Part shown: positions 1 to 45,737 of the stretch, one piece after another
Layout: the number at the start of each line of letters is the position of its first letter
Position numbering within the stretch: position 1 is the first letter of the stretch
NCBI GenBank assembly: GCA_021513695.1
Contig: CP084166.1
Span: forward strand, 1,024,001 to 1,088,000
DNA length: 64,000 bases
Source of the DNA: Candidatus Heimdallarchaeum aukensis
Lineage (GTDB): Archaea > Asgardarchaeota > Heimdallarchaeia > Heimdallarchaeales > Heimdallarchaeaceae
Direction of reading: 5' to 3'
Program-made: the position numbers and the translations under genes
The notes under the pieces: generated by a model
The model's database searches: none
The model's input: only the letters and a program-made list of their open reading frames with translations
What the model was told of the DNA's origin: nothing

Positions 1-802
1 GCCAGAATTTTATCTCCTTACTTGTTAATTTCTTTTTAGGGGTTAGTAACACTCCTGCAGCAGGAATGTTTATCCCTAGATCTATTCCCAGCACAGCTGG
101 GGGGAGAGAAGAAGAATTCTCTTCTTTAGGAGGATAAAAAGAAGAAGGAAGAACTCTTAGTTGGAAATACACCCACCATTCATGTGTAGAACGTTTATAT
201 CTTAGTTCTAAACTTTTCACCCTCCCTTTTTTTAACTCTTTCTGGTGGAAAGTGCTCATCTCTAAAGGTAACCATAACTTCTGATGATAGGAGGTGTTTC
301 TTCTCCACGTATCTAACGAGTCTCTTATCCCCACCCACCAACGAGTGAGAGTGTTATTCTTCTCTTTAGGTAAATGGACGAGAACGAACCTCTTTGCATT
401 AATTAGTTGTCTTCTCACTCTCTTTATTGGAGGACGAGTAGAACTGGGTTTATAACCTTGTTCGTATAATTGCACAGCTATATCTCTACATTCTTGAAAT
501 TCGTTGTGGGAACAATAAGGGAACATTTTCTTCAGGTCGTGAGGAACAGTCTTTCTTCTCTCTTCTTCTTTAACTTTTGAAGTCGTTAGCGTCAATTCAT
601 CTAGTTTTCCTCTATGAACTCTTATTTTCCCTTTTTTAGTTTTAGCACATATTTTTCTTCTGTTGTGATGAATTATTCTCACATACTTCTCTATTATCCT
701 CGTGTCTCTCCCCGTTATTCTCCTTAACCTTTCCTTTTTCCTCGTCGTCAACACCTCATTCTTTATTCTCACTTTCAAGGTTTTGACGACGTCCTCCACC
801 AT
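1..802 (-). CDS. tnpB: IS200/IS605-family TnpB (OrfB)-like protein, N-terminal ~267 codons. The ORF runs off the window start, which is why it is absent from the ORF track (no stop inside the window).
   Basis: Own minus-strand translation. ATG at 800-802 gives MVEDVVKTLKVRIKNEVLTTRKKERL...FPYCSHNEFQECRDIAVQLYEQGYK...RYKRSTHEWWVYFQLRVL...PAVLGIDLGINIPAAGVLLTP with no stop down to position 1. The KTLKVRI start resembles the TnpB N-terminus (K.YKFRLYPT) and GIDLGI resembles the RuvC-I motif. A GTG at ~691-693 is an alternative start. Confidence 0.55.
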   Translation of the reverse strand, partial: MVEDVVKTLKVRIKNEVLTTRKKERLRRITGRDTRIIEKYVRIIHHNRRKICAKTKKGKIRVHRGKLDELTLTTSKVKEEERRKTVPHDLKKMFPYCSHNEFQECRDIAVQLYEQGYKPSSTRPPIKRVRRQLINAKRFVLVHLPKEKNNTLTRWWVGIRDSLDTWRRNTSYHQKLWLPLEMSTFHQKELKKGRVKSLELRYKRSTHEWWVYFQLRVLPSSFYPPKEENSSSLPPAVLGIDLGINIPAAGVLLTPKKKLTSKEIKFW

Positions 803-960
803 TCTTTTCCTTCCTTCTTTTCTTTTTCTGTTTATTTTTTCTCTTGTTTTTTCTTCTTATCTTTTTTTATTCTACTTTTTTTCCCTATAAAAACCCCTCT
901 CCTCTTTCTCCTCTCCTTTCTTCTCTTTTTTCTCTCCTTCTTCCTCAACAACTGTAAATT
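700..960 (+). repeat. Strand-asymmetric polypyrimidine (CT-rich) low-complexity tract, purine-rich on the minus strand.
   Basis: Seen directly as runs such as ctcctttcttctcttttttctctccttcttcctc. The short ORFs 702..890 and 832..1059 are composition artefacts. Confidence 0.8.
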
Positions 961-973
961 ACGTGAAAAATAG

Positions 974-2553
974 ACACATGGTGACACAGGAAAAATAAAA
1001 TGGAAATTTAAAACTGGGGGATCAATAAGAGCATCTCCAGCTCTAGGAGATCTTAACAATGATGGCTATCTGGATATAGTTATAGGGTCTTCTGATTCTT
1101 ATTACTATGCATTTAATGGAAGAACTAGGACAATCCTCTGGACACTCAAGACAGAACTAATAATAGGGGGAACTGCTCCAACATTGGCAGACGTTGATGG
1201 GGATAACGAACTAGATGTCCTACTTAATGGTAAAAATGTGTATCTTGTTGGAGGAAGAAAGGGCAATTTAATCTCTATTTATAATCAAAATGAAGAGGTT
1301 GGAACTTCTATCACTGTTGGTGATTTGGATAATGATGGCAGTTTTGAGATGATATATGGTTCCAAAAGTGGAAACGTTTTTTGTTATACGATTACTAATT
1401 CTGATAAAACAAGTTATAGGATCTATTGGCAGGGGGATGGTGGTGATTTCTTCAATTCTGGAAACAGTTTTACAATAGATAAAGATGGAGATACTGTTTC
1501 TACTTTCTCTGAAAAAATTATTGGAACAGACCCAGAAAAAAGGATACGGATGGAGATTTTCTTATAGATGGATATGAAATATCTGCTACTAAAACAGACC
1601 CCTTAGTTCAAGATTCAGATAATAATAATATCGGAGACCAGAATGAAGATTTTGATGGTGATGGGTTAACAAACCTAGAAGAATATAAGAAAAAAACAGA
1701 TCCTTTGAGTAGAGACACAGATGAAGATTTTATACCAGATAAAATTGATATTTTCCCAATTTTGTTTCCAGAAGGTTTAATTTATCTCTCTCTATTCTTT
1801 CTTTTATCAATATTAATAGTTTCTACAATAGTAAAAAAGAGAATAGAAAATAAAGGCGATAAAAATGAAAGTCTTATTCTTAAATTTAAAATGAAAAGAA
1901 ATCAAATATTATCAGAGATATCTTGGAAAGGCTCTTATAATAATTACAAAAGTGTTCATTTACAAGCTTTTAGATGGTTTGGAATTTTTGCTATTTCATC
2001 TGCAATAATGATTAATTTTATCATTTATCCACTTTTTAAAACAGAAATTGTTTACCATGATATTGTAAAAACAAGCTATTCTACAGTTATCTATGTTTTA
2101 ATTAATGTTATTTATTTTGCGTTATTTTATTTATTAGGTTCTGGTTTTTACTCGCTAGGGTTTTCAAGTAATGGAGTAACTTTTAGCTATGATTCTATTG
2201 CTACAAACTTGTTTCTTTCTTCTCTTATCATTTTAAGCATTTCTTTCGTAAAAGTATCAATAAACTTAATTTTACTTCCAATTTTAACTTATTTACTTAC
2301 ATCTGCTTTCATCACACTTTATAATATACGAAAGGAAAAGATTACTAATAGTAATAATCTCTTAAACTTTGTTTTCATCCTTTTTCCAATATCTTTTCTA
2401 TCTCTTTTATGGTATCAAACGCTTTCTTTCTATTTTGCTATTCCACAACAAATTTTGAGGATAATTTCTTTGATAACAGGAGTGTTAATGTTTCTTCTAG
2501 CACTAGAAATCTTTACATTATCTACTCTGAATTCTCGTGAAAAAACAAAATAA
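974..2553 (+). pseudogene. Surface protein remnant with FG-GAP-like beta-propeller repeats, thrombospondin-type-3-like Asp-rich Ca-binding repeats and a C-terminal polytopic membrane domain. It is 5'-truncated with no start before TTG 1184, and it is frameshifted at an A6 run.
   Basis: The frame is open from 974, just after TAG 971-973, and encodes GDLNNDGYLDIVIGS, ADVDGDNELDVLLNG and GDLDNDGSFEMIYGS blades without any start codon. ORF 1184..1567 ends ...TDPEKRIRMEIFL*. Reading the A6 tract 1536-1541 as A7 joins it to the frame of ORF 1705..2553, giving ...TDPEKKDTDGDFLIDGYEIS...DFDGDGLTNLEEYKKKTDPLSRDTDEDF..., followed by a ~240-aa multi-TM tail. Confidence 0.55.
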
Positions 2554-2990
2554 AGAGCATTTGAAATCTAACAATTCTAGTACTCCTTTCTAATTTTTTT
2601 ATCTCACATAGATAATAGTTAGTTGTAATGTTTGAAAACAGGTTGTGAATAAAGTAATAATAGCTCCTCTGTCATTGATTATGCAATAAGTATAATCTTC
2701 CATATTCTTGACATTACATCTTATCTCTCAAATATGATTATCTATATGAACTCATTTCTTTAAACAAACTATCTTCATTTGCTTATTTTTGTAAATAGTA
2801 CATAATTTCCTATTATTAAGACAACAAAAATCTCCTAAAAAGTTCGGTAATACATGATTGAAAGAAGTCGATTGATGGAGAAATCCTGGTGATTAACTTC
2901 TTGAGAGATACTAATTAATTATTTTCGAGCAAATGCTCAAGAAAATGATTATTCTTCTTGGAACTCTTTAAACTACAAGACAGAGTAATT

Positions 2991-4031
2991 TTATGCTCTT
3001 TCACATTTATTTTTTTCATTATTTTCTACAATACATAGTTCTAGAAGTATATCATACGTTTTTATCATCTCTCTCATAGTTTTTAACATTATTGGGTAAA
3101 GACGCATAATACTATGATTCTTTGTATATTTATAATCTGAATGATAATTAGGATAACGCGAAGCACCAACATGTTTTTCCAAATTCATGCTTAAAATAAC
3201 TATATATGCAAACAGTAGTATAAGATAAAGATAACTTTCTATTTGTACTAACCAATCTTCTTTCTGAATTTGTGTGATAAATTCTTCTCTCAACATTCTT
3301 CGCTCATCAGTTTGCAATTTGATATTATATTCTTGTTCGATTGTTTGAATGACATAGTCTGTTATGCTAATGAACTCTTCTTTCACAATTTTATCAAAAT
3401 TTTCTTTTCTTATGGATTTTATTCCTTTCCTAAATAATGAAAACAGCTTGTTGTATTTAATTAATATTTCCTTTAATGTAGTGTGTTCAAGATACAGAGT
3501 TTCTTCTGATTTCCTTTTTTGCTCATAATCACTCAAATATTTATCAATTGCTTCTATAATGCTTAAAAATCCTTCTCTTTGGTTATCATTAGAATAATCA
3601 GCTAAAGATTCATAGAGATCTTTTAGTTTTTCGAAGAAGAATTTAGTAAAAGTATGTCCAACTTTTATAAGCCGTTCAGTTTGACACAGTCCAGTAAGTA
3701 GAAGTAGTGATTTTCCTAATTTCTCAACAGATTGTTGGAGGAAGAAAATAGACTGTGCATATAGTTTCTTGTGATATAGAATTTTTGAAGCTCTTAAATC
3801 CTCTTCAGCAGTATCTAACAGTCCTAAAGCTGATATTAAATCTCTCTTTTCTGGTGGGATCTCATACTGTGATCCATATTTTAATTGCCATATTAATTGC
3901 CTTTTGATATCTTCTATATCTGTTTCTTGTAATGCAATTTTGTCATTATTATCATTCATTAAATAGCACTGATGGTTAATATTTAAATAATTAATGGCAA
4001 CTATTATCATAATGCAATAAAAATCGAGCAT
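2991..4031 (-). CDS. HEPN-domain protein. The likely true start is the internal Met MNDNNDK near 3959.
   Basis: DLRASKILYHKK carries an Rx6H motif. It is followed by AQSIFFLQQSVEKLGKSLLLL, matching the QxxEKxxK helix typical of HEPN. Confidence 0.5.
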   Translation of the reverse strand: MLDFYCIMIIVAINYLNINHQCYLMNDNNDKIALQETDIEDIKRQLIWQLKYGSQYEIPPEKRDLISALGLLDTAEEDLRASKILYHKKLYAQSIFFLQQSVEKLGKSLLLLTGLCQTERLIKVGHTFTKFFFEKLKDLYESLADYSNDNQREGFLSIIEAIDKYLSDYEQKRKSEETLYLEHTTLKEILIKYNKLFSLFRKGIKSIRKENFDKIVKEEFISITDYVIQTIEQEYNIKLQTDERRMLREEFITQIQKEDWLVQIESYLYLILLFAYIVILSMNLEKHVGASRYPNYHSDYKYTKNHSIMRLYPIMLKTMREMIKTYDILLELCIVENNEKNKCERA

Positions 4032-4183
4032 CTGCTCTTTAAAATGAGAAACTATTTTATATTAAAAACTCTTAATTGGTTTTAAAACATGATAATTAAA
4101 GAAAAAAGAATAATTAAATCCTTCTATTTAACTATAAGGAGGAGTAAATAAACATAAAAAAATTGTGAGTAGAAGGGAAATAT

Positions 4184-5419
4184 ATGTCATTTAATTTTGA
4201 AGTTAAAAATACAATTGCATCCTTAAGGCAATCAAGGTTGAAGCTTGGCAATGTAGAAATAGAAACACCAAATTATATAATGACACATATTGAAACTAGA
4301 CGACTTACTACAGGGTATAATCTTGTTGGGAGTCGTGAGCCTAACCCAAAACTGAATGAATTAATTAGTGATCATATACCTGATAGATTAACTGCACAAA
4401 AAATATTTGAAAACTCCGATGAAATAGAAAAATTATGTAACAAGCTAGATAACTTGACTAAATCTGATCGGATGAATTTTGTTCAATTTCGTTTGAAGGC
4501 TGGAAATGAAATTAGCAAATATGAATTATGTCAAATTGTTAGGTTGCAGTCTGATATGAACAAATTTTCCATTATAACAATACCTGATCCTACTTGTTCA
4601 TATAATAACTCTTGGATTGATTCTATGGAAGCAGCTCTCTATGAGGCTAAGGTTTCACAAGAAGTTGGAACATCGGAACTATTTATGCCTACTGTTTCGC
4701 TTGCTCAGCCTTTATTGGATGTGGAAAAGAAAATTTCGTGGTTAATAGATAAGCAAGTTCCATCCATTGGATTAAGAGCACACGGGCCACATTTTCCAGC
4801 TACTTTGCACAAATCAACAAATCTGATTACACAATCAGATAATCCGATTTGGATTCATCTGTTTGACTTATCCAAAAAATATAAGAATGTGTCCCAACTG
4901 CATTTGGCACCTTTGACAAGTGTTGATACTATTTCCTTGAAAAAAAAACATGGGTATAGCAGCAGCAAGAAAAATATTATGGATGGTTTATTGCCAACAC
5001 CAGAGAATATATCTTTAGAACCAACTGCTAGGGAAATAGAAGAACAAAAGGTCAGAGAGATAAAGCGTAGTCAACGGTTTTTGTTTGAGCAATTAGCTTT
5101 AGGTTACATTTCTATAAATGAGCGGACTAAATGGATTGGTCATGAACTTTCTTGTACTTGTCCCATTTGTAAAAAGACAAAAGATATAGATACCTTTAGG
5201 ATTTATCTCTCAACACATGATAAAAACTCACTTCTACAAGTGCATGAATATACTGGTTTTAACCAGGAAATGTTGGCAATTAGAAAAAATATTAGGGATA
5301 ATGATATCTCAGAGTATTTTAGACAAAAAATATTAGTAAAACGACATAGACGCAAACTATCTAAAAGATATCCTGAGCTTGAAAGGTTTATTAATCCGCC
5401 TTTAGATAGTTACTTCTGA
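4184..5419 (+). CDS. TGT-superfamily transglycosylase (queuine/archaeosine tRNA-ribosyltransferase fold) without a PUA domain. It is a DpdA-like candidate.
   Basis: The N-terminus MSFNFEVKNTIASLRQSRLKLGNVEIETPNYIM matches the TGT start (F.F.i..R.g.l.l..g.ieTP.fMpv). The zinc motif SCTCPICKK...STHDKNSLLQVHEY has the CxCxxC...H pattern. The tail VHEYTGFNQEMLAIRKNIRDNDISEYFRQ parallels bacterial TGT (EHNIAFYQQLMQKIRDSISEGRFSQFAQ). IPDPTCSY and IHLFDLS are candidate equivalents of the catalytic TDSGG and MFDCV segments. Confidence 0.65.
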   Translation: MSFNFEVKNTIASLRQSRLKLGNVEIETPNYIMTHIETRRLTTGYNLVGSREPNPKLNELISDHIPDRLTAQKIFENSDEIEKLCNKLDNLTKSDRMNFVQFRLKAGNEISKYELCQIVRLQSDMNKFSIITIPDPTCSYNNSWIDSMEAALYEAKVSQEVGTSELFMPTVSLAQPLLDVEKKISWLIDKQVPSIGLRAHGPHFPATLHKSTNLITQSDNPIWIHLFDLSKKYKNVSQLHLAPLTSVDTISLKKKHGYSSSKKNIMDGLLPTPENISLEPTAREIEEQKVREIKRSQRFLFEQLALGYISINERTKWIGHELSCTCPICKKTKDIDTFRIYLSTHDKNSLLQVHEYTGFNQEMLAIRKNIRDNDISEYFRQKILVKRHRRKLSKRYPELERFINPPLDSYF

Positions 5420-5447
5420 GATATTTATCCAAGAAAAGGTGATATAA

Positions 5448-6059
5448 ATGAATCAAAAAGCGACAAAAAATATGTCGGAAGAAGAAAATAAAATGATAAA
5501 AAAATGGATCTATTTAATGTTAGCTGCAGATAACAATAGTTCAATCAAAGGAAAAGTTAGAATAACTAAAGAATTCTTTTTGATTACCAAGCAGTTAGCT
5601 CCTGAAGTATTTAAGGCAGCTCAATTCTATCCTTATCACTTTGGGCCTTATAGTACTCGTTTTGCTGTTTGTGTTAACGAACTGATTAAAAGTAATCATA
5701 TTAATATATTGTATAAAAGTGGAGATTATCATTATGAGTTGTCAAAAAAAGGTTTAGTTGAAGCTAAAAAATATTTGAAAACAATCCCTAAGAAAGAAAA
5801 ACAAGTAATTGATGATATTAAGAAAAAAAGTAAGTCTCAATCTTTAAAATCAATGTTAAAAGAAATTTACGAAAAATATCCTAAGTATACAGTTCGTTCT
5901 GTTATTAAAGCAGATCTTGATACTAAAAAAGTAAACTTAGATTCTGTAGAAAAAGTAGATGATAGTTCAGGGTTTGTTTCAAGTGATATGAAACATGAAC
6001 GTGACATCGTCTTGAAAGGTGAAGCTGCAAAAAGATTTCTAGAAATAATCTCAAAGTGA
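5448..6059 (+). CDS. Putative antitoxin partner of the downstream GNAT toxin. It is unusually long at 203 aa and has a DUF1778/TacA-like C-terminal tail.
   Basis: It ends 8 nt before the GNAT gene. Its C-terminal KHERDIVLKGEAAKRFLEIISK resembles the DUF1778 tail (ERD.VLL..EA..RFL..L). A possible winged-helix region lies at the N-terminus. Confidence 0.4.
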   Translation: MNQKATKNMSEEENKMIKKWIYLMLAADNNSSIKGKVRITKEFFLITKQLAPEVFKAAQFYPYHFGPYSTRFAVCVNELIKSNHINILYKSGDYHYELSKKGLVEAKKYLKTIPKKEKQVIDDIKKKSKSQSLKSMLKEIYEKYPKYTVRSVIKADLDTKKVNLDSVEKVDDSSGFVSSDMKHERDIVLKGEAAKRFLEIISK

Positions 6060-6066
6060 TACATCA

Positions 6067-6570
6067 ATGACTAGTCATGAAGTAGAGTATAAAATTGAGA
6101 AACTAAATATATCTCATACTCTATTAGACTTTGATTGTGGTGATGAAAACGTTAATGAGTATTTTAATCAGAGAAGCTATGAAGAAGTTGAATTAGGTAA
6201 TGCTCAAATTTATGTGTTTATACTTGTGAATACAAATGACCTCATAGGTTTCTATACGCTTTCAATGAAATCTGTTCGTTTTAACTATGAAGGAAGAGAA
6301 TATGATCAACCTGTGTGTTTGCTTGGGCAAATTGGAGTAAATAAAATTTTCCAAAATAAAGGTTGGGGAACAATATTAATTAAAGATGCAAAGAAGAGAT
6401 GTAAAAAAATCTCAGAAGATATTGGAAGCATTGGTTTATTATTGGAAACATATAAAGAAGAATTAGTGAACGGGTTTTTCAAGAAACTTGGTTTCGAATA
6501 TGTTGAACATCACAAAATGAAAAACCGAGGTACAAGATATAGATTGTTTTGCAAACATGAACATGAATAG
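6067..6570 (+). CDS. GNAT-family acetyltransferase, TacT/AtaT/KacT-like toxin.
   Basis: HTLLDFDCGDENVNEYFNQRSYEE...DLIGFYTLSMKSV matches the H..FdCG...LN.yL...A...ivGyytL signature of GNAT toxins. The acetyl-CoA loop is QNKGWGT. The protein is 167 aa. Confidence 0.7.
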   Translation: MTSHEVEYKIEKLNISHTLLDFDCGDENVNEYFNQRSYEEVELGNAQIYVFILVNTNDLIGFYTLSMKSVRFNYEGREYDQPVCLLGQIGVNKIFQNKGWGTILIKDAKKRCKKISEDIGSIGLLLETYKEELVNGFFKKLGFEYVEHHKMKNRGTRYRLFCKHEHE

Positions 6571-6624
6571 AAAAAGGAGAAATGGATATAAAACAGCTTA
6601 CTCTATTTAAAGCTTAAAGCTATT

Positions 6625-6666
6625 TTTGAATATTATTCTTTACTTTTTTCTAGCTCTAATCCTCTC
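6625..6666. repeat. Copy 1 of a 42-bp direct repeat, tttgaatattat[t/c]ctttacttttttc[t/c]agctctaa[t/c]cctctc.
   Basis: It is 39/42 identical to 9084..9125. All three mismatches are T/C transitions. Confidence 0.8.
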
Positions 6667-6901
6667 TTCTTGTTTAATTACTGTAAGTATAATTACTTGT
6701 TCGAGTGTAAGATTGTTGAAGTTCAGTTCAGTACCTAAATCATCCAAAAAAATAGTTATTTAATAGGAATTTATATTTAACTCGAAAAAATCCCATTTTT
6801 AATATTTCTTTATGAAAGTATTTTCAATAAACGGAAAGTTTGCTACAAGAACTCGAAGAGTTTTCTATTACTATTGCAATCCTTCTTTTTTAAAATGTAA
6901 T

Positions 6902-7354
6902 TTATTGTATAGAATCTATGAACCTCTTTAAATCCTCTTCTGGTAAATCAGTATATTTCTTATATCTCTTGAATTTTTTACTGAAGAATTTTATATCAAC
7001 ATAAATTTGTATTTTCTCTTTGCCTTCAATTTGTTTTCTGTCTGTTACAGGAAAAGTTGCCCAATATAACTTGTATTCTTTTGAATGCTTAAGTTCATAT
7101 TGTTGTTGTTTTGGTCTTATCTTTCCTTGATACTCAACACTATCAATTATCATTTTTATGTCCAACAGAAACATGAGTGTAGAAGCAGTTCCAGCATTAA
7201 TTATGTAAAGTCCCCATTCTTTTGCTTGTGGGTTGAATATTGGTCCAGATAAGTTTAGCGAAGCTCTTTTTGGTCTAAAGAAGGATAGGTATACTGTTAC
7301 AACTGACAGAAAAATAGATATTGTAGAGAATATTAATGAGACTACTTCTGTCAT
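6902..7354 (-). CDS. Hypothetical protein with an N-terminal transmembrane helix, 150 aa.
   Basis: ORF with hydrophobic N-terminus VVSLIFSTISIFLSVVTVYLSFF and no recognisable motif. It lies inside the direct-repeat-bracketed cassette. Confidence 0.4.
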   Translation of the reverse strand: MTEVVSLIFSTISIFLSVVTVYLSFFRPKRASLNLSGPIFNPQAKEWGLYIINAGTASTLMFLLDIKMIIDSVEYQGKIRPKQQQYELKHSKEYKLYWATFPVTDRKQIEGKEKIQIYVDIKFFSKKFKRYKKYTDLPEEDLKRFIDSIQ

Positions 7355-7589
7355 AAATACTAATACACATTATCAATTAATTAACAGTTCGGTATATTGT
7401 TTCACCCATGGCACATTCACCCCAAGATAAAATACTGAACCATTAGATGTTGGATCAATTGGTAAGGAGATCCTAAAGATTAAAGAGTAGTTTGATTTAG
7501 AGATTATTACTATAAATAATACTTATGTTGCTTTGTTTTGTAATGTTAAAAAACAAGTGATAAGCCAAATTTAAGGTTACTAAGTCTAA

Positions 7590-8933
7590 TTATTCCTCAT
7601 GAAGTAAAGGTGTTTCTAAAAGGACATTTGTTAAGTCGATATTGTTAGGGTTTATTTTTTTTGGATAAACAAAAGAGAAGTGGCAGACGTAAGATTTGTT
7701 GTTTCTTATTATTTTGATCCAAACATTTTCTGGTTTTTCCATTATTATTCTTAACATCCATGATGTATTTTCTTCTGATACTCTAAGCAAGGCATAAAGA
7801 GTTCTTTTTTTTAATTCTAGTGTCTTATACTTTTCGAATTTTTCTTTTAACTGTTCTGCGTTCCCCCAAAAAAGGTTGGGAAAAACTTTTTCATCTTTAT
7901 CAAATACTATTGTTATCTCTTTTATTTTATTGTACTCTGAAATATCTTTCAAGATTTCCTTCTTTTCATCAATAGGGATTCTTTGTTGAATACCTCTAGA
8001 TTTTCTTAAAATTTGATCGAGGAGAAACCATATTGAATTGTCCATATATTTAATAAACGAATTAATTTCCATTTTAAATGCAACTTCTGTTTTTTGTATT
8101 TCTACATTACCTTTTTTATTTATCCAACCGTTTATTTTAAAATAAGAAAAACGAGGATCGACATATTCGAAAGATTGTTTGGGTGGAAAGGTTTTTCCAT
8201 TTTTTCTTGCCAAAGTTATTGCATCTTCTATCCATAATTTGAAATTGGTATTTGCTGACCTTGCGGGAATTTTGTCAATAATAACCCATATCTCATCGTT
8301 ATTGAAATCCAGAACTTTTTTACCACTATGTGTAACAGTATTACGTAAGTATAGAAACACACTGAATGCAAGTGATGGATTGATATATTTATCTGAATAG
8401 GGCTCGTAATGTCTAATTAGTTCATCAAAAATACGTTCATACCTATATCGTTTTAATTCGGGAAGATTATTTAAATACGCTTCTGTGAATCTTGAAGTTA
8501 GTTCCAAAAGTTCCAGACCAGCTGAAACATATGTTTCAAAGAGACATATAAAAAGGAACTTTATAGTTGGTATTTTAGTCCAATCAAATCGTATTTGATA
8601 ATACTCTATTTGGTCTCTTACTAATTGGAAGTACGCAAGTCTATATTTAATGCTGTTTAATGTTTCAATATACCTTCCTTTTTTCACTAATTCATTAATA
8701 TGAAAAACTAGTAAACTGTAGTCTCTTGATTCGTTATGTGCTTCCAGATAGTATGAAAACATACTCAAAACGCCAAGACTTGTATCAAGAACATGCCGAG
8801 AAATACTAATTTCTTTTTTTTCTTTTTTTTCTTTTAACGAATTAAAAAACTCATATTCGTTAAGCAAAATTTTTAACAAAAGTTCATGAGATTCTTTACT
8901 TTCTATTTCTTGCTTATCCTTATTTTGATTCAT
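7590..8933 (-). CDS. Hypothetical protein, 447 aa.
   Basis: Long ORF inside the direct-repeat-bracketed cassette. No motif recognised by eye. Confidence 0.5.
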   Translation of the reverse strand: MNQNKDKQEIESKESHELLLKILLNEYEFFNSLKEKKEKKEISISRHVLDTSLGVLSMFSYYLEAHNESRDYSLLVFHINELVKKGRYIETLNSIKYRLAYFQLVRDQIEYYQIRFDWTKIPTIKFLFICLFETYVSAGLELLELTSRFTEAYLNNLPELKRYRYERIFDELIRHYEPYSDKYINPSLAFSVFLYLRNTVTHSGKKVLDFNNDEIWVIIDKIPARSANTNFKLWIEDAITLARKNGKTFPPKQSFEYVDPRFSYFKINGWINKKGNVEIQKTEVAFKMEINSFIKYMDNSIWFLLDQILRKSRGIQQRIPIDEKKEILKDISEYNKIKEITIVFDKDEKVFPNLFWGNAEQLKEKFEKYKTLELKKRTLYALLRVSEENTSWMLRIIMEKPENVWIKIIRNNKSYVCHFSFVYPKKINPNNIDLTNVLLETPLLHEE

Positions 8934-9083
8934 TTGTTATTAATATTATTTTATAACAAAATAAAAAAGTTTAGTTAAATATTACTGTGCAATTCTTCCT
9001 CTATTTTGATAAATAAATGAACTAGAATAATTTTCTTTCCAAGAATAAACTGCCTTTAAGGATAGTTAATAAGTAGTTAAAGG

Positions 9084-9125
9084 TTTGAATATTATCCTTT
9101 ACTTTTTTCCAGCTCTAACCCTCTC
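9084..9125. repeat. Copy 2 of the 42-bp direct repeat.
   Basis: It matches 6625..6666. It is immediately followed by the CT-rich tract 9126..9300. Confidence 0.8.
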
Positions 9126-9300
9126 CCCTCTCCCATCTTTACAATCCTTCTTTCCCCTGAAATTATTTTTTTTGTTTCCTTTTTCTATATTCTCTTTTCT
9201 TTCTAACCAACCTTATACTCTTTTTCTTTACCTTTGTTCTTGTTATTGCTTTTGTTACTGTTTTTAGTCCTAGTTCTGTACTATTAGTTCAGTCTCTTTT
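9126..9300 (+). repeat. Polypyrimidine (CT-rich) low-complexity tract.
   Basis: Seen directly as cctctcccctctcccatctttacaatccttctttcccc..., with the same compositional style as 700..960. ORF 9085..9267 is an artefact. Confidence 0.7.
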
Positions 9301-9500
9301 TTAGGATAATCTGTGGATAGTAATTCTTCAAGAAATTAGAGGAAAAATATGAAATCAATAATAAACTTTCTCTAAATTGTCTTAAGGTCTTCTTCTAGTT
9401 ATAACCTCCTTACAAGAAGATGCTTTACTTTGCAACAAAATGAAAAATAAACTAAAGAAACTATTCATAGGGTTTAAATACTTATTTCTCGTATAGGCTA

Positions 9501-10637
9501 ATGATGGAAATAAACAAAATTTATCTTAAAGATTGTATAGAAGGTATGAAGGAACTTCCTGAAGATAGCATAGATTTAATATTTGCAGATCCACCATATA
9601 ATCTTCAATTGAAAAATGAATTATATCGACCTAATCAGTCATTAGTGGATGCTGTAAATGATGAATGGGATAAATTTTCATCATTTGAAGAGTACGATGA
9701 TTTTACAAAAAAGTGGTTATCAGAATGTAGGAGGGTGTTAAAAAAAACAGGTTCTATATGGGTAATAGGGTCGTATCACAATATATTTAGAATCGGAAAA
9801 ATAATGCAAGATTTAGGTTTCTGGATATTAAATGATATCATTTGGATAAAAACAAACCCTATGCCAAATTTTAGAGGTACTAGATTTAATAATGCACATG
9901 AAACTCTGATTTGGGCTTCGAAAAATGAAAAAGCTAAACCTACTTTTCATTATAAAGCTATGAAGGTATTTAATAATGATAAACAAATGCGAAGTGATTG
10001 GTATATTCCAATTTGTATAGGAAAAGAAAGGTTGAAATTAAACGGAAAAAAATTACATTCTACACAAAAACCTGAAGCATTGCTATATAGAATAATAATA
10101 TCAACATCAAATGTAAATGATATAGTGCTTGATCCTTTTATGGGTTCAGGTACTACAGCTGCAGTAGCAAAGAAACTAAGAAGGAATTTTATTGGTTTTG
10201 AAACAAATGAAATATATGTAAAAGCAGCAAGAGAGAGAGTTGTTAAAGTCATACCCATGGATCCTGACATTTTGGATTATAAAGTGGAAAAAAAACCACC
10301 AAAAGTTCCTTTTGGTACTTTAGTAGAACATAATTATATTAAAGCTGGAGATTGGCTTTATTCAAAAGATATGAGATATAAAGCAATAATAAAAGCAAAT
10401 GGGTCAATTGAATATCAAGGTAAAAACGGTTCTATTCATAAAATTAGTGCTCAAATTTTAAATAAAAAAGCAAATAATGGATGGGATTTTTGGTATGTAA
10501 AAGAAAACGATAATCTTGTATCGATTGATACTATTAGAAGAAATTATGCAAGTAAAAACATGAATTATATGAATGATGAAATAGATATGAGAAATAAAAA
10601 AGTAACAGACAAACTTTTAACTAATTACTTGGAATAA
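9501..10637 (+). CDS. CcrM/M.HinfI-family beta-class N6-adenine DNA methyltransferase (probable GANTC specificity) with the CcrM-type C-terminal domain.
   Basis: Motif IV DLIFADPPYNLQL precedes motif I VLDPFMGSGTTAAVAKKL. Near-colinear matches to Caulobacter CcrM as I recall it include WVIGSYHNIFRIG, LGFWILNDIIWIKTNPMPNFRGTRFNNAHETLIWASK, KQMRSDW, HSTQKPEALLYRII, and C-terminal PKVPFGTLVE...GSIHKISAQIL...NGWDFWYV. Confidence 0.9.
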   Translation: MMEINKIYLKDCIEGMKELPEDSIDLIFADPPYNLQLKNELYRPNQSLVDAVNDEWDKFSSFEEYDDFTKKWLSECRRVLKKTGSIWVIGSYHNIFRIGKIMQDLGFWILNDIIWIKTNPMPNFRGTRFNNAHETLIWASKNEKAKPTFHYKAMKVFNNDKQMRSDWYIPICIGKERLKLNGKKLHSTQKPEALLYRIIISTSNVNDIVLDPFMGSGTTAAVAKKLRRNFIGFETNEIYVKAARERVVKVIPMDPDILDYKVEKKPPKVPFGTLVEHNYIKAGDWLYSKDMRYKAIIKANGSIEYQGKNGSIHKISAQILNKKANNGWDFWYVKENDNLVSIDTIRRNYASKNMNYMNDEIDMRNKKVTDKLLTNYLE

Positions 10638-10642
10638 TCTTC

Positions 10643-11512
10643 GTGCTTACTAATTATCTTCCCTATGAAGTTTTTAAAAGAATATTAACAAAGACAATCT
10701 TTCAAAATGCTAAAATAAGTTTATTAGAAAAAGTTGCTAAATATCCTTCAAGATATACAGGTTTATTTAGGCCTACCAAACCTAAATTAAAATTAATCCA
10801 GAACATTACTCAATCAAATGAAATTCTATTTGGCGATGCTTTTGAGATCATAATTAATGAATATTTGAATAGATTAGGTTTCTCTCCAATTAAAAAAAAT
10901 TATTCCTATAATGGAAATGACTTAATGTTTGATCAGATTGTAGGAAAAGAAAATACTATTATTTACATAGAACAAAAAATAAGAGATGATCATGATTCAA
11001 CAAAAAAAAGAGGTCAAATAGAAAATTTTGAGAAAAAGGGTGAATTATTATTGAAACTATATCCTGATTTCAAAATTACTGGTATAATGTATTTTATAGA
11101 CCCAAATTTAAAGAAAAATCGAAGATATTATATGCAAGAATTACAAAGAATAAGTACTCAATTTAATTTTGAAACTCATCTCTTTTATGGAAAAGAGTTT
11201 TTTGAATGGATAGGAAAAGATGAAATCTGGTTAGAAATAACAAGCTATTTATCAAAGTGGAAAGAAGAGATACCTGATTTTCCCACAATTAATTTTGATG
11301 AAAATCCCGAAGAATCTTTTGAGGAAATCAAGCATCTACAACCTAATTTACTGATAAAGCTTCTAAGAAATGATGCAATATGTAAGGAGATTTTTCCCGA
11401 ATTGTTCCCGGAAAAAACGACATTAAATCTACTTCTGGAATACTATATTCATGAAAGAGAAAAAAATAAGACTAATACAATGGTTATTGAACATTTAAAA
11501 AAAGTGTTGTGA
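10643..11512 (+). CDS. Putative Type II restriction endonuclease cognate to the CcrM-like methyltransferase.
   Basis: GTG start 6 nt after the methyltransferase stop. A candidate PD-(D/E)xK core lies at DLMFDQIVGKENTIIYIEQKIRDD (D...ExK). No other homology recognised. Confidence 0.45.
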   Translation: MLTNYLPYEVFKRILTKTIFQNAKISLLEKVAKYPSRYTGLFRPTKPKLKLIQNITQSNEILFGDAFEIIINEYLNRLGFSPIKKNYSYNGNDLMFDQIVGKENTIIYIEQKIRDDHDSTKKRGQIENFEKKGELLLKLYPDFKITGIMYFIDPNLKKNRRYYMQELQRISTQFNFETHLFYGKEFFEWIGKDEIWLEITSYLSKWKEEIPDFPTINFDENPEESFEEIKHLQPNLLIKLLRNDAICKEIFPELFPEKTTLNLLLEYYIHEREKNKTNTMVIEHLKKVL

Positions 11513-12322
11513 AAAAAAATCTAAAATCACAAAAAAGATCTATATAATTGTACGATTTTTTGTTCAAAAAAAAACTATCACCGTTTGATTGACATGTTAT
11601 AAAAATAGTTTCTGAAGAAAAACCTTTACATCCATTAACTCTCAGATGCTTTATACCATTATTTTGAAATAGATACTACATGCTTGAATTAAAATGAATT
11701 TCTGGACTAGTTGATTTTCCTTTCTTAATTATAAATTATATAATTTTCCTAATTGAATTGAGAGATAATTTTTCTTTTTCAAACCAAGCATGATCTATTA
11801 TAGGAGGTTTTAAACGGAGAAGATTCAAACTTTGGATATATATTCTACATATATTATAAATATTGTTTGATATTCATCATTTGAGTTTCTCAATAAAAGA
11901 TTATTCCATATTTTAGTTTCTAGTTTGAAGATTATGAATTATTTAATAAATGTCTTAAATTCGGGATACCTTTCTTTCATATTTTCCTCAGAATCATGTA
12001 ATGGAATTTGTAGTGTTCCTTTTACTAATATTCTATATTCCTCAAGTTTAAGAATATGATTTGATTATAGCAGTGTGCCATTACTTGTTATGTTTGTTGT
12101 TATTTTTTTCGATAAATGTAGAGATTCTGGTAAAGAAATAATGTTTTCAGTTATGAATTGTATATTATCATGAAATCTAACCTTCTTAATTTAACTCAAA
12201 TTAATTAAGTAGTAAAGATAATAAAAGAAGGTATCTAAATGTTTATTGCGGAGATTTATTATAGGGTTTTTAATTTTCATCTCCCACATCGAATAATACG
12301 CATTTATCAATAAATCCTTATA

Positions 12323-13342
12323 TTAATTAGAGCAATATGAAGTTTTATTTGTGAAAATTTCAGGATCATCTAGTTCTCTCAATCTTTTAAGTGTAACACT
12401 TTTCCATTTATCATAAAAATCAACTAAAATACCTTCTTTTTCCTTTAATGTTGGTTTTCCTGTATCATCATCCATAATAAATTCAAATCCGTAATCAATC
12501 TTAAAATTAAATTGATCTGTATGCAAAACTCTTTCATGAGGAAACTTAATATCGTTATCCAAAGATGAACAAAAATTATAATGTCGAACTTCAATATGAA
12601 TTGATGAGTTTGAATATAAACCAAGCCAGTCCATTATATTTTTCTTTGTTGATTGAGGATTATATCTATTTGCTTTCGGTGTTGTAGTACAAATAATAAA
12701 ATTGCCATTTCTTATATTCTCCTTTTCAAATTGTTTTACTAACCAATTTAATGTTTTATAGTGTCGCTTATTATTAACTAAATTTACACCAAGATATCTG
12801 TCCACAATCATTACTTCCTTTGCAAATCTGAATATCTTTTTGATAAATCTTGAATGCACTTCTGTTAAATTATTTAATTCTGCTAAGTTTAATGATGTAT
12901 TCTGTATTTTATTGTAGAAATCTATTTCTGTAATTAATTCCTCTGATACATAGCTACTACTCAATTTTCCAATTTCACACTTATTTCTACAATTATTGTA
13001 AGGAAGTATTATCCAATCTGGATTTTCTCTGCTTTGAATTTCACAATAAGCTATACATTCATCTTTTTTTTTCTTTCCTTCAATTTTAATTTCAATTATT
13101 CTTCTATTATTTTGCATATTCGAAAGCATTTCTTCTATGATGAGTCTTTCTTCTATTGGTATAAGTGAAAGGGTTTTTGATTTAATAGGTAAACTAAAAC
13201 CTTCTGGTTTTAGAAGTATACCGTTTTTTCTAAGGGAAATCAATAAAGAAACTAATATTTTAGAACGATACATAATAAGCGTAGAATTTTCAGAATTGTC
13301 ATCTAAAATTTTAGGAGATAATACAAATGTCTGTACCGTCAT
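12323..13342 (-). CDS. Partner protein of the ABC ATPase, 339 aa. It carries a Cys4 element with a possibly degenerate HNH-like scaffold.
   Basis: Its start overlaps the upstream stop (ATGA, 13339-13342). ECIAYCEIQSRENPDWIILPYNNCRNKCEIGK has Cx3C...DWIILP...Cx3C, reminiscent of the HNH DHIIP/CxxCN arrangement but with W in place of H. Confidence 0.4.
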   Translation of the reverse strand: MTVQTFVLSPKILDDNSENSTLIMYRSKILVSLLISLRKNGILLKPEGFSLPIKSKTLSLIPIEERLIIEEMLSNMQNNRRIIEIKIEGKKKKDECIAYCEIQSRENPDWIILPYNNCRNKCEIGKLSSSYVSEELITEIDFYNKIQNTSLNLAELNNLTEVHSRFIKKIFRFAKEVMIVDRYLGVNLVNNKRHYKTLNWLVKQFEKENIRNGNFIICTTTPKANRYNPQSTKKNIMDWLGLYSNSSIHIEVRHYNFCSSLDNDIKFPHERVLHTDQFNFKIDYGFEFIMDDDTGKPTLKEKEGILVDFYDKWKSVTLKRLRELDDPEIFTNKTSYCSN

Positions 13343-15249
13343 TCAAATAGCTCCTTATAACTTAGATCAAAGAAATCATCTGGCCATTCATTTATAAAAT
13401 TACCATGTTTGTCAAATTCGATAGGAACTATATTAGCTCCTAGTTTTGTTTTTTCAACAAATATAATTGATATAAGTTTTGGACTTATTTTCTTTTTCCT
13501 AATGAGTTTTTTGATTCGTAGAATTAATTGTTGACTATGAGTTTCAATTATAAATTGTTTTGATAAATTCCTTTTAACATGTTCAACAAAAAATTCTCCC
13601 AATTCAGCTTGCAATCTTGGATTAAGATGTATCTCTGGTTGTTCTATTAAAAGAATTTCATTTGGTTTATTTGACATTATCGTTTGTACAAGAATGGGGA
13701 GAACCTGACTCACACCAAATCCAATATCCGGTAATGCCACCGGATATTTTGTGATATTATCTTCGAATTTCAAGGAATATACCCCTGATAGTTTGTCTTT
13801 ATCTGCTGTATATGAGACTGTGTAACCGATTTTTAGTTTTTTCAACCAATTATTTAGTTCATTTATTTTATTTTTATATGAATAGATAAAATCTGCTGTT
13901 TTTGATCCTGAAACACCTACATTAATAGGTCTACTCCCTCCAAATATGTAATATCGAGATGGTTTATCTCTAAGAGGACCAATAAAAGTAATGCTCTTCA
14001 TCAATTCAATGAATTGATTTCTATTCTCTTCAGTCACGTCATAATCAAAATATAAATTCTTTTTTCCATGTTCAAGTTTAAAAAACGTGTTGATTTTAAG
14101 TAATTCACCTTTAATTGGATTACCAACAAATTCAATAGATAAATTATGATGAATAAACTTAATTAATTTGTTAATTAGATCTGTTTCTATCTCCGATGGG
14201 TCTTTAAACATAATAATTCTAAATAATTTCTCAATTTTCATATTAATTGATTCTTCAATTAGAATCCTAAAATCATGATCGATTAAAATATCATCTTTTA
14301 TTTCATTTAAACCAATTTCAACCTTTTTGCAAATTTTTTCAATTATTTTATCTTTTTTTAACAGAAAAAATTTGTTTTTTTCTAATTCTCTTCTAATTTT
14401 TTCTACTATATTTTTAATTTCAATTTTTTTCGCTTGACTATTTTCCTGATAAATTTTCAATATAGTTTCTATAGGAACTTTAATATTAATCGTAGGAATT
14501 TTATCGTTATCAAAATGAATCTTCTTTTCAATTTTTTCTTCTATATCAAAGACATCAATTTTAAATTTCTCTTCATATGCAGAATAAGAGATTATAAATG
14601 GTGTATCAATGTTTTCAACAATTGTGATTTTCTTGTATCCTCCAGATATTGACTCTCTCAAAAACGGTAAAAGAATCATCGGTATAACTCTTTCTGTACT
14701 TATTTTTGAAAGAGAACAAGTATATTTTATCCGCTGATAAATCCTAGAATTTTCTGTTTTGCAATATACTAATTTTGCTGAAATTAATGATTTTTCAATC
14801 TTTTTGCCATAATTTCTAGATATTCCCCATATTATTTTATCTAAAAGAATGTAAGGTCTCTCTTCAATCTTTTTTGAAATGTATGTTAAGTTGATTTTGA
14901 ATTTTTTAAAAATCCTTTCCTTGTATGGTGAAATATGAAGATAATCTGAGGATCGCCACTGTAACCCAATTTCAACTCTTTTTCTAGTATCATGACCAAA
15001 AACAATTTCTTCGAAAGGTCCAATATCAACATAAGTCCCTTGATGTAGAAGAACATTATTTGGGTCATTGTCTTCTATAGTTTGTTTTAAGGCTAAAAGT
15101 GATTTCAAAATAGATGATTTTCCACTACTATTTTCTCCAAATATCAGTGTAATCGGTTTACATGGTATTCTAGAGCCCTTTTTTCCAAAGGCTTTAAAAT
15201 TTCTTAAATAAATTTCAGTTAACATGAACAAACACCAAGTTTCTTTCAT
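13339..15249 (-). CDS. ABC/OLD-type ATPase of the AAA_15/AAA_21 kind, similar to the ATPases of Septu PtuA, PARIS AriA and AbiL.
   Basis: N-terminal LTEIYLRNFKAF...ITLIFGENSSGKSSILKSL is the Walker A. C-terminal ILLIEQPEIHLNPRLQ is the Walker B/D-loop, and FIIETHSQQLI is the H-loop. A long insert separates the two halves. Confidence 0.8.
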   Translation of the reverse strand: MKETWCLFMLTEIYLRNFKAFGKKGSRIPCKPITLIFGENSSGKSSILKSLLALKQTIEDNDPNNVLLHQGTYVDIGPFEEIVFGHDTRKRVEIGLQWRSSDYLHISPYKERIFKKFKINLTYISKKIEERPYILLDKIIWGISRNYGKKIEKSLISAKLVYCKTENSRIYQRIKYTCSLSKISTERVIPMILLPFLRESISGGYKKITIVENIDTPFIISYSAYEEKFKIDVFDIEEKIEKKIHFDNDKIPTINIKVPIETILKIYQENSQAKKIEIKNIVEKIRRELEKNKFFLLKKDKIIEKICKKVEIGLNEIKDDILIDHDFRILIEESINMKIEKLFRIIMFKDPSEIETDLINKLIKFIHHNLSIEFVGNPIKGELLKINTFFKLEHGKKNLYFDYDVTEENRNQFIELMKSITFIGPLRDKPSRYYIFGGSRPINVGVSGSKTADFIYSYKNKINELNNWLKKLKIGYTVSYTADKDKLSGVYSLKFEDNITKYPVALPDIGFGVSQVLPILVQTIMSNKPNEILLIEQPEIHLNPRLQAELGEFFVEHVKRNLSKQFIIETHSQQLILRIKKLIRKKKISPKLISIIFVEKTKLGANIVPIEFDKHGNFINEWPDDFFDLSYKELFE

Positions 15250-15317
15250 TCACACTCTTGATGAATTCTTTACAAATTTATGTAATAAAAATAAAAACTT
15301 TTCTGGAATATCTATGT

Positions 15318-44200: not shown

Positions 44201-44261
44201 ATAATAACAATAGAAGTAATATTAGAATTGTTTTTCTTTTTAATAACCTAAAGCCTGACAA
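41247..44261 (-). CDS. Secreted surface protein with FG-GAP-like repeats and a C-terminal membrane anchor, 1004 aa.
   Basis: N-terminal signal peptide. Blades DFNGDGIQELIFG, DYDNDGVRDIMFYG, DFDSDGLPEWLIGG and DFDNDGHRDIIDVG. C-terminal anchor PFPFITILIVMVF followed by a basic tail. Confidence 0.6.
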   Translation of the reverse strand: MSGFRLLKRKTILILLLLLLSAFLIRQDWNQITNTSVFLDKNNISSQISQIQDNPLTYDTFQSDETTSILVEFEDSTGTRKMGKFSYIDGKWVLQWLKDHMNPGAVEDADNDGVLEIYTWFIEAYEDNFNYTFYRLDENTGEIVWSQTLILGSSDYYRFYEFEDFNGDGIQELIFGKQFNDDTSPTPVQLLIFDSTNGDILVNYDGGYPKLGNFPILYDYDNDGVRDIMFYGWPDDSNTYFRMVNFKDFIPTTLVDFNVSTWGLSKPYIYDFDSDGLPEWLIGGWGSSYWRLYDTDLTEIWSVSLEGSADGNYLVTDELLSKGLIAIGTGSYGGTSEYIHLLDVNTGADVVPAINIPGNSLFFADAVFDYNNDGNYEILTNIATNQEGFALIDTSTGNKLWQSDRPVSRLPYYYLSNNNYQADSFVDFDNDGHRDIIDVGKANGDILHFLYNGSVVVLGNLINDNSLDAVSSTMYYSMIYKAPIIPPGSDFVYIDDFNKLWINTDYYEWCVTNDTSFVLKTGTESEVVSLGTDVLSHFIQTKQSESYEPYEFTRMDIVYNDGYRANISLEQKMIYSSKNEVVYLDMNMSVQRNSGLIKVSGYIYNPNNYSDVYNLETRLQLTTGGDQANDYYYYSGALDALSFPFDSGDLILPSEVSPYNNMMYVTMFDDYHKQGFAMFANYSYHGDGWTDEHYGNVMSVLGDKDNYGNNSLSLVLTANETIEYYLLFYTTTYEKLWLPVETAIDTVRNNGTIIDNIAPAILNIQYSPENPTELDTIDIYANVVDYESDVQFVMLVYESNGEWFSPTMTYIGDDTYNCTLGPFEANSLVSFYIIAVDIFGNFIGSELYEISISIFIYDDIPPTITDVQYTPSEPTDQTVIEISAKVTDESQLKYIKLYYTIGDSTVETSVLMTPSDGVYYVQVGPFIKEKKVTFYIEASDIHENIASTSQFVIYLQSSSQTDSTSSAGDDTNNKNTIILPFPFITILIVMVFSCWIKIRTRKRF

Positions 44262-45104: not shown

Positions 45105-45129
45105 CTTTCTTATTAAAAATATTTAAATA

Positions 45130-45429: not shown

Positions 45430-45737
45430 ACAAAAAAGAAATTAATTCTATCCTTTTATATTTGAGGGTTAGTTCTTTCTTTTTTGTCTCTCGTGGAGTG
45501 AAGGAAAAAAGAAAAAAGATTTATACTTTTTTTCTTCCTTCTTTATGATTCCCACGATTCGTGTATGATGTCTGTATCAATCCCTCATTCTTTCATTGTA
45601 TGTTTAGGTTGAGTTTTCAAGCGATTAAACTTTTATTAGTTTTCTCTCTTGAAAGACCGAGTGCGAAAAACTTACGTAAAAAAGTAAATCATAAAGTTTA
45701 TTAAAACCGTATTTATTTCTCACTTATTGGGGTTTGT

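Follow-up and report, generated by a model that had tools for sequence, protein, structure and literature searches.

The rearranged RuvC active site is a described variant among TnpB nucleases and Fanzors. In the 'RIIr' clades, the RuvC-II glutamate has changed to glycine and a compensating glutamate is carried on strand β5 (PMC10691335, Altae-Tran et al. 2023). The 'TnpB2/Fanzor' group, defined by replacement of the RuvC-II glutamate by glycine or proline, has its alternative glutamate ~45 residues off, where it is essential in ApmFanzor, and the TnpB of Thermoplasma volcanium is active (PMC10530073, Jiang et al. 2023; RIIr in PMC10691335). The class as a whole is experimentally active (PMC10530073; PMC10691335), and rearranged-site TnpBs and Fanzors are compact, programmable and reported to act without collateral activity (PMC10530073). 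The genome paper on Heimdallarchaeum mentions multiplied transposase families, without an analysis of the TnpB family considered here (PMC8813620). A member of this family is found in a 64,000-nucleotide stretch of Candidatus Heimdallarchaeum aukensis (contig CP084166.1, positions 1,024,001 to 1,088,000 of the forward strand), hereafter the window. Positions 1–977 of the window very probably constitute the left ~52% of an Asgard-specific, single-gene TnpB insertion element of ~1.88 kb, which has a rearranged active site and lies in an FG-GAP surface-protein gene. Such an element explains three features of the annotation, namely an open reading frame (ORF) missed by the ORF track, a headless surface-protein gene and a decayed fragment at 45.1–45.7 kb. 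The partial TnpB frame reported in a preliminary description of the window is real and was interpreted correctly in essence.

A TnpB-family gene with a rearranged RuvC site

Translation of the minus strand between 802 and 2 gives a frame of 267 stop-free codons that has an ATG start and the N-terminus MVEDVVKTLKVRIK... and runs off the edge of the window. It is absent from the ORF list for this reason, the want of an in-window stop having been recognized from the outset. The motif GIDLGI occupies residues 239–244 (window 88–71), with the RuvC-I aspartate D241 encoded at 82–80. Arithmetic from the composition of the window DNA (~30% GC, hence ~8% stops among random codons) gives p ~1e-10 for 267 open codons, and the fragment has homologues at E = 1e-160; this is therefore not a chance frame. 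Positions 1–802 (minus strand) accordingly hold the first 267 of ~485 codons of a TnpB-family gene, comprising the WED/REC N-terminal half and RuvC-I, an assignment based on identity to a second contig from the same locus, on homology and on fold.

That contig, L086 (GCA_054384295.1), aligns to window 1–2662 at 98.4% and contains at 5538–6995 an intact ORF of 485 amino acids, in which 267 of 267 residues are identical to the window fragment; across window 1–802 a single base differs, and the difference is synonymous. Its C-terminal half carries a CxxC...CxxC zinc ribbon (CARCG...CSSCN) and the RuvC-III sequence HSDLTGAMNIA, two of the features for which a leftward extension had been proposed. 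Leftward of the window are to be expected 218 more codons, the 3' RNA and the terminus ...GTAAATCAT(A/G). Logan contig L083, also from this locus, ends within the element at window ~870 and gives no leftward extension; a break here is as expected, since the element is a repeat. The left edge of the window is likewise a repeat-induced assembly break.

Profiles and fold agree with the translation and with L086. The full-length L086 protein matches PF07282 (Cas12f1-like_TNB) at 35.3 bits against a cutoff of 26.3, and close relatives of the 267-residue fragment extend into a C-terminal half with the same TNB/zinc ribbon domain. Searched against PDB chains, a profile of 113 family sequences finds Cas12f and TnpB, with E between 2e-20 and 2e-16, as well as mimivirus Fanzor2 (2e-9). 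For a 91%-identical member, an AlphaFold2 model (pLDDT 86, pTM 0.69) matches Cas12f, ISFba1 TnpB, ISDra2 TnpB and Fanzor2 in Foldseek (8dzj, 3e-15; 8iaz, 2e-12; 8h1j, 1e-11; Fanzor2, 5e-11) over its whole length of WED-REC-RuvC-TNB fold (~460–490 columns). Sequence likeness to the solved structures begins near residue 200, so that WED and REC, which make up most of the window-encoded part, are recognizable by fold and not by sequence. For the N-terminal ~200 residues, 68 clusters of relatives were found among 1.84e9 cluster representatives. Homologues of the 267 residues lie nearly all in metagenome-assembled genomes (MAGs) of Heimdall-, Thor- and Promethearchaeota, many of them 'partial' at contig ends, and a homology scan with one genome per species found 80 family loci, 80/80 from Asgard archaea. 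The protein is a member of a small, Asgard-restricted TnpB clade. Public records label the family 'transposase', 'zinc ribbon domain-containing', 'TnpB' or 'InsQ'.

The catalytic residues of the family depart from the canonical pattern at one position. D241, E399, the four zinc-ribbon cysteines (including C406, C409 and C423) and D433 are invariant in the 113 family members (E399 is given in P0034 numbering), with D433 lying in the RuvC-III contexts HSDLTGA/NADLNGA. The canonical RuvC-II glutamate (hhhEdL) is absent; the site reads VVIGYPK, and its glycine, G346, which is at least 90% conserved, aligns in hidden Markov model alignments with the catalytic glutamate of Cas12f, AsCas12f and TnpB. 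The alternative glutamate E399 occurs 53 residues past G346 in the contexts ..DE.GTSS.C or ..PEQWTS..C, just ahead of the TSxxC zinc-ribbon motif. In the structural model, G346 ends a strand (340–347) and E399 directly follows another (394–398). Judged from alignments and model, the active site appears to be the published 'TnpB2/RIIr' arrangement, the same as that of Fanzor, in which E399 would supply the third carboxylate beside the RuvC-I aspartate and that of RuvC-III. The preliminary description had counted a continuation lacking RuvC-II as evidence against TnpB: this is true to the letter, given glycine for glutamate, but not in substance, given the conserved alternative glutamate.

A missing canonical glutamate, together with Cas12f as the best structural and profile match, could also signify a domesticated, nuclease-dead TnpB (TldR-like) or a miniature Cas12f-like CRISPR effector. 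This is hardly credible here. Both aspartates and the alternative glutamate are invariant; the copies are many, mobile and polymorphic, and those in Heimdall genomes lie in unrelated contexts with no fixed neighbourhood. No CRISPR-like array occurs near the element, none was found in L086 or window 1–12000, and no Rfam CRISPR family matches in the window. Both versions are rejected, because arrays are lacking nearby and the acidic triad is conserved.

Anatomy of the element and its insertion in an FG-GAP gene

Copies aligned with their flanks delimit an element of 1.79–1.88 kb with sharp boundaries. From the left end, its order would be a degenerate terminal inverted repeat (TIR), a TATA-like box with a purine-rich leader, the 485-codon TnpB gene, an RNA of ~250 nt and the right TIR, ending ...TCAT. 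In the window, the left end (952–977, minus strand) reads GTGTCTATTTTTCACGTAATTTACAG and is the degenerate left TIR arm, with the first base of the element at 977, as placed by the copy alignment and by an empty site. The leader with the putative promoter region occupies 803–951 (minus strand) and appears on the plus strand as low-complexity pyrimidine repeats, with low-complexity tandem rows at 818–943. A TATA-like box, TTTTTATAG, lies at 893–885 (minus strand), ~85 nt upstream of the ATG, and is present in all close copies in an alignment of 13; box and leader together are the putative promoter, as read from sequence. The part of the leader at 818–943 is also an extreme polypurine tract. At many points it is imperfectly complementary to pyrimidine-rich parts of the 3' RNA region of the same element, which may be an effect of composition only.

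The surface-protein gene meets the element at window 977/978. On the plus strand, a TAG at 971–973 is followed by a frame that is open from 974, has its first canonical start (TTG) at 1184 and stops at 1565–1567, as originally described. This frame matches FG-GAP (E = 7e-12) and FG-GAP_3 (E = 8e-13), and homology searches with it recovered the same remnant, 99% identical and annotated in Ca. H. aukensis (P0031), as well as a protein whose reading frame continues through the insertion point (P0032). The contigs of P0032, L084 and L085, both from MAGs, carry the uninterrupted gene and are 100% identical to window 978–1092, with identity beginning at 978. The empty site reads ...TCTATATGATTG|ATGGTGACACAGG and the occupied site ...AAAATAGACAC|ATGGTGACACAGG. 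Since identity to the empty site starts at 978, the element occupies 1–977, and the junction is corrected from 973 to 977/978. The ATG at 978–980 (CAT on the minus, element strand), directly 5' of the element, is present in the empty site and is target-derived, and codons 974–979 of the apparent FG-GAP frame are therefore element-derived. What remains of the gene is a 3' remnant of ~195 codons at 978–1567 (plus strand), encoding part of an FG-GAP/PQQ-like beta-propeller surface protein and severed from the gene's N-terminal ~250 residues. The insertion is polymorphic, as the two uninterrupted MAG contigs show.

Beyond the right end in L086 lies DNA unrelated to the 5' part of the FG-GAP gene, with an Arf-family GTPase gene ~415 nt further on. 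As the gene's 5' part is absent across the element, a later rearrangement removed its head. Of the two possibilities first raised, that an element had landed in the 5' end of the gene or had replaced it, the former stands, with the loss of the 5' part assigned to this later event. The junction of a simple insertion, joining the FG-GAP 5' part to the right end, was not found in the JGI metagenomes, so that target duplication is unreadable at the window site. A solo fragment of the 3' RNA occurs in L086 at 3512–3650 (minus strand; nhmmer E = 2e-32), ~1.6 kb past the right end of the element and outside the window, directly downstream of the GTPase gene. This fragment was left by another copy and would fit a rearrangement of the locus through inter-copy recombination. 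In L084 (2876–3810), the uninterrupted FG-GAP gene lies in three pieces, with an internal block of blades (86 codons, 3134–3394) lying on the other strand between inverted copies of a blade motif (..GKNGTVL / ..GKNGTLL); this block could be an intragenic inversion, a product of repeat recombination or an assembly artefact.

Downstream of the stop codon in L086, ~250 nt are conserved among copies and end in ...AAAAAGTAAATCAT at the right end of the element. An RNAalifold consensus of this region has 75 pairs, 8 with compensatory changes. In controls, 98.3% of cells were paired compared with 43–52% with slid partners, and 41 cells were doubly changed compared with 16.7 ± 3.5 in shuffled alignments, with 0/500 shuffles reaching 41. 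No Rfam family matches this RNA, and nothing in the whole window reaches a gathering score. The region is a candidate omega-RNA by its sequence and predicted fold, placed up to the right end and just outside the window, as had been anticipated.

A second, decayed copy of the element lies at window 45148–45692 (plus strand) and retains the last ~92 codons, the whole 3' RNA region and the right end. Its coding part (45148–45429), with zinc ribbon and RuvC-III, matches PF07282 at 31 bits and has an in-frame TAA at 45259–45261 and one zinc-ribbon cysteine changed to phenylalanine. The following 45430–45692 comprises the complete 3' non-coding region, with the omega-RNA candidate, which nhmmer finds at E = 1e-77 and in whose consensus fold 98% of cells pair, and the right end, closing with ...AAAAAGTAAATCAT at 45692. 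The TnpB fragment earlier noted at 45130–45429 is thus genuine, a C-terminal piece of the same element family together with its 3' region.

Other copies give a measure of the family's condition. The complete genome of Ca. Heimdallarchaeum endolithica (CP084167.1) holds 11 close copies, seven of them with an ORF that is intact and 480 or more codons long, and two further copies at 53% identity. Pairwise ratios of nonsynonymous to synonymous substitution (dN/dS) are 0.13–0.22, and 0.08–0.18 for the N-terminal 267 codons; the family is under purifying selection. These observations bear on whether the window copy is a dead remnant, a functionless truncated or decayed pseudogene left by inter-copy recombination. 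In keeping with this, the locus is rearranged, with the FG-GAP 5' part missing beyond the right end; that end reads CATA in L086, not CATG; an isolated fragment of the 3' RNA is found 1.6 kb off; the other copy in the window is clearly decayed; and relatives with frameshifts or premature stops occur. The L086 copy, however, is intact over 485 codons at this same locus, with one synonymous difference in the 802 shared nucleotides, and selection has maintained the family, leaving a dead remnant with only a slim probability.

For the insertion element favoured here, a sequence of events can be proposed. The element inserted 3' of a CAT within the FG-GAP gene, apparently with no target duplication, by transposition that must have been catalysed in trans by an enzyme outside the element, and a subsequent rearrangement deleted the gene's 5' part. 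By analogy with characterised TnpB systems, from which RNA-guided cleavage, guide position, target-adjacent motif (TAM) and promoter are taken, TnpB would bind the 3' RNA, with the guide read from the DNA flanking the right end, and would cut element-free insertion sites beside the V-CAT motif. Cutting of empty sites would favour retention and homing of the element.

Several points weigh against this account. The window ends at codon 267, placing the downstream integrity of its copy out of view, and at least one relative, P0002 of H. aukensis, ends at this same position, while several copies are frameshifted. P0002 (K9W45_00690, 264 residues), from the complete H. aukensis genome, ends exactly at the window end (...QIKF, where other copies have FW); it represents a premature stop at the Trp codon, and the integrity of the window copy is not to be assumed. 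The profile searches proposed in the preliminary description favoured TnpB through PF07282, but the full-length protein scores 78 bits (E = 7e-22) against NCBIfam guided_TnpB (NF040570), below the curated 100-bit cutoff, PF01385 is matched weakly, and the 267-residue fragment by itself has no relevant Pfam or NCBIfam match. E399 is placed through the model's secondary structure, and its proximity to both aspartates in space is putative. Covariation in the 3' RNA derives from about two lineages, and the independent events are correspondingly few. No transposase was found in the fetched loci or beside two left ends recovered from metagenomes, and a TAM of CAT alone would make the element's own right end (...TCAT plus flank) a target. 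If the TAM is CAT only, self-avoidance would need a rule of 'never T at -4', for which 0/22 copies with T at that position of the left flank is a statistical hint only.

The window has other features of note. A 140-residue ORF (44626–45045, minus strand) and the adjoining 45046–45147 abut the second TnpB fragment at its truncated 5' edge; on reading, the ORF may be part of a different mobile-element gene by which the second copy was cut. Its assignment as IS6-like was dropped, as it has no Pfam match. An intact FG-GAP surface protein of 1,004 residues with a C-terminal transmembrane anchor is encoded at 41247–44261 (minus strand), ~0.9 kb from the second fragment, and the proximity of both element copies to FG-GAP genes is probably a coincidence. 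Precomputed Pfam labels of the identical contig L083 indicate a weak HEPN-domain ORF at ~2991–4031 (minus strand), an N6/N4 methyltransferase with a HinfI-like restriction enzyme at ~9504–11512 (plus strand), and, at ~13339–15318 (minus strand), an AAA_21/SMC_N-type ATPase with a large ResIII helicase after it. These defence-type genes suggest a defence-island-like neighbourhood.

Ends, target motif and movement

IS200/IS605 elements by definition lack TIRs and have hairpins at their ends (PMC13565253; PMC3119063). In the present elements, both ends are tipped with CATG and form mutually inverted repeats of 25–31 bp. The TIRs of subfamily B (31 nt, 84% complementary) and of the 18H4_34 subfamily (31 nt, 81%) are the top inverted pair and lie exactly at the termini, a third pair occurs in L014/L015, and the window's own subfamily has a weaker TIR (~15–17 of 22 positions). 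TIR sequences vary by subfamily, with left and right ends changing in step. In single-stranded folds, the left end forms no hairpin better than shuffles (z = -0.9 to +0.7), and the right end has small hairpins only, just inside the terminus. Over 22 copies, the left flank reads V-C-A-T followed by the element's G (C in 22, A in 22, T in 21 and G in 21), and the right end reads ...TCAT in all 22, followed by a variable base (G in 15, A in five, T in one and C in one). Target-site duplication is seen in none of the 22.

Partner genes were sought among the ~90 loci fetched. When all ORFs within 4 kb of 82 loci were clustered, a search that did not extend to whole genomes, no recurrent ORF of TnpA size was found beside any member, and no DDE, Cas1-like or serine-recombinase (IS607) partner recurs beside any Heimdall copy. 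IS607 membership was rejected for want of a serine-recombinase neighbour in the loci fetched, and ORFs of ~200 residues upstream in Thor loci, considered as a transposase partner, proved to be spurious antisense frames. A metagenome scan for the window-type left end recovered two more copies, each leading straight into tnpB. In the window itself, end searches and nhmmer found only chance-level matches to additional solo ends or derivatives resembling miniature inverted-repeat transposable elements.

The IS200/IS605 type originally proposed for the element is therefore sustained in part. The nuclease is a TnpB, and the element keeps the one-sided target and the lack of target-site duplication, but it fails two defining features of the group, having TIRs and no left-end hairpin, and no TnpA occurs in the loci fetched. 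It could nonetheless be a classical TnpB-only member (IS1341-type), moved in single-stranded form by a Y1 HUH TnpA whose gene lies at another genomic site; in this model, subterminal hairpins are what the enzyme recognises, and its cut falls 3' of a short motif. The strictness of the left-flank motif, the constant ...TCAT, the missing duplication, the small right-end hairpins and the name given by NCBI to some members ('IS200/IS605 family ... TnpB') all fit such a mechanism. The chance-level folding of the left end does not, nor does the absence of a TnpA-like ORF from the fetched loci, and true inverted repeats of 25–31 bp reaching the tips are excluded by the family definition; this explanation is possible, if rather doubtful.

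TIRs in every subfamily instead recall a non-autonomous transposon in which TnpB is cargo and double-stranded DNA is moved in trans, for instance by aCas1, an Asgard Cas1 homologue, or by a DDE enzyme, and published DDE-linked TnpB transposons have symmetrical ends (PMC10691335). The Thor sister branch of the family, 31–35% identical, lends this some weight: in at least 17 Thor loci the motif GTTCACTCA, reported for aCas1-linked Asgard TnpBs (PMC10691335), lies just downstream of the gene, and the branch always adjoins an orphan ORF of 1,598 residues. None of the Heimdallarchaeum copies, that of the window included, has this motif downstream of the gene; no partner gene lies near any Heimdall copy, and neither a Cas1 nor any other domain was detected in the Thor neighbour. 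A target-site duplication, the usual product of casposases and cut-and-paste DDE enzymes, is not seen here; the target motif is one-sided, and three different TIR sequences in one genome are awkward for a single trans-acting enzyme. This explanation, too, is possible, if rather doubtful.

The Heimdallarchaeial elements might also form a distinct class of TnpB transposon, defined by co-evolving, CATG-tipped TIRs of 25–31 bp with a strict one-sided V-CAT and without target-site duplication, end hairpins or a transposase gene. Since this combination fits neither Y1 or serine TnpA enzymes nor ordinary cut-and-paste, an undescribed mode of movement is suggested. Complementary ends might pair in single-stranded DNA as a 'panhandle' that presents both CAT| cleavage sites, or an Asgard-specific enzyme such as aCas1 might mobilise the element. 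Given that a Fanzor-type active site here goes together with TIR ends, in the archaea most closely related to eukaryotes, such a class could be the prokaryotic counterpart of the Fanzor1 TIR transposons. A distinct class of this kind is considered improbable.

Thor loci show further structure around the gene. In 22 of them (L044, L046, L047 and others), a longer TnpB-like gene encoding ~560–580 residues is always found ~250 bp from the divergent 1,598-residue ORF, as in L087, where 4955–9751 (minus strand) stands beside 10001–11740 (plus strand). The large ORF has no match in Pfam, NCBIfam or PDB sequences and may correspond to the published 'aCas1' partner or be undescribed. Homology between species spans the gene pair and ends directly behind the 3' RNA. 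The downstream motif forms a hairpin loop whose stem covaries between species, and ~70 nt upstream of the gene there is an inverted copy, GAGTGAACTC, so that a TnpB module of ~1.8 kb is bracketed by a conserved 10-bp inverted repeat (examples are L043 4930–4938, minus strand, and 6741–6749, plus strand; L046 6747–6755); the Thor 'hypervariable region' may be this covarying stem and not a guide. A Heimdall subfamily of ~37% identity has, ~415 bp upstream of the TnpB-like gene and on the same strand, a gene for a HerA/DUF87-type ATPase of ~900 residues (L026 1833–4586, plus strand; PF01935, E = 8e-13). The pair occurs also in L034, L037, L038 and L076, with both genes repeated on three contigs of one MAG, and may be a larger mobile unit with cargo.

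Relation to described systems

The object is ordinary in kind, a TnpB insertion element at a contig edge whose gene is of a kind already annotated; its atypical end architecture is the sole part of specialist interest. These ends do not fit the IS200/IS605 or IS607 paradigms, a point of relevance to how tnpB elements without TnpA, very numerous in archaea, move. An Asgard-restricted TnpB family is now described, from its ends and target motif through its putative promoter region and 3' RNA to its active-site variant, its copy number and the selection on it. As rearranged-site TnpBs are active, compact and programmable, a member of 485 residues for which an RNA is defined and a short TAM proposed is a plausible genome-editing candidate.

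Among known systems, Cas12f (type V-F) gives the best structural and profile matches and is similar in size and domain order, but here CRISPR arrays and cas genes are lacking, and the gene is multi-copy and transposon-borne. Fanzors have the same rearranged catalytic arrangement, and Fanzor1 genes are carried in TIR transposons. Mimivirus Fanzor2 is matched by both profile (E = 2e-9) and fold (E = 5e-11), but Cas12f and TnpB structures rank above it, and no special affinity to Fanzor is shown; the present host, moreover, is prokaryotic, and its gene has neither introns nor a nuclear localisation signal. The aCas1-linked Asgard TnpBs (Cas1H-Asgard-1/2; Altae-Tran et al. 2023) belong to the same protein family, are likewise restricted to Asgard archaea and lie in repeat-flanked loci. 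The Thor branch shares their GTTCACTCA motif, whereas the Heimdallarchaeum copies have neither the motif nor a large neighbouring ORF and are compact single-gene units of 1.8–1.9 kb with CATG-tipped TIRs.

The TnpBs of ISDra2 and ISFba1 (8H1J, 8EXA, 8IAZ) share the fold of the present protein (Foldseek E = 1e-11 to 2e-12), with a single RuvC domain and a zinc ribbon, and their elements have a 3' omega-RNA overlapping the right end (a candidate here), a short left-flank motif and no target-site duplication. They differ in having the RuvC-II glutamate, a DRDxN-type RuvC-III and ~400 residues, compared with glycine and 485 residues here, and their elements have hairpin ends and a TnpA partner, where the present element has TIRs. 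The Thermoplasma volcanium protein (TvTnpB; TnpB2/RIIr) shares the change of the RuvC-II glutamate to glycine and the compensating glutamate ~45–55 residues downstream, after the next beta-strand, as well as an archaeal host and an RNA encoded at the right end. TvTnpB, however, belongs to an IS605 element with a Y1 TnpA, hairpins at its left and right ends and an NTGAC motif, whereas the present elements have no TnpA, TIRs and V-CAT, and the N-terminal ~200 residues of their protein are specific to the small Asgard family. The closest characterised relatives are therefore the rearranged-site TnpBs, exemplified by TvTnpB, and, by fold, Cas12f and the TnpBs of ISDra2 and ISFba1.

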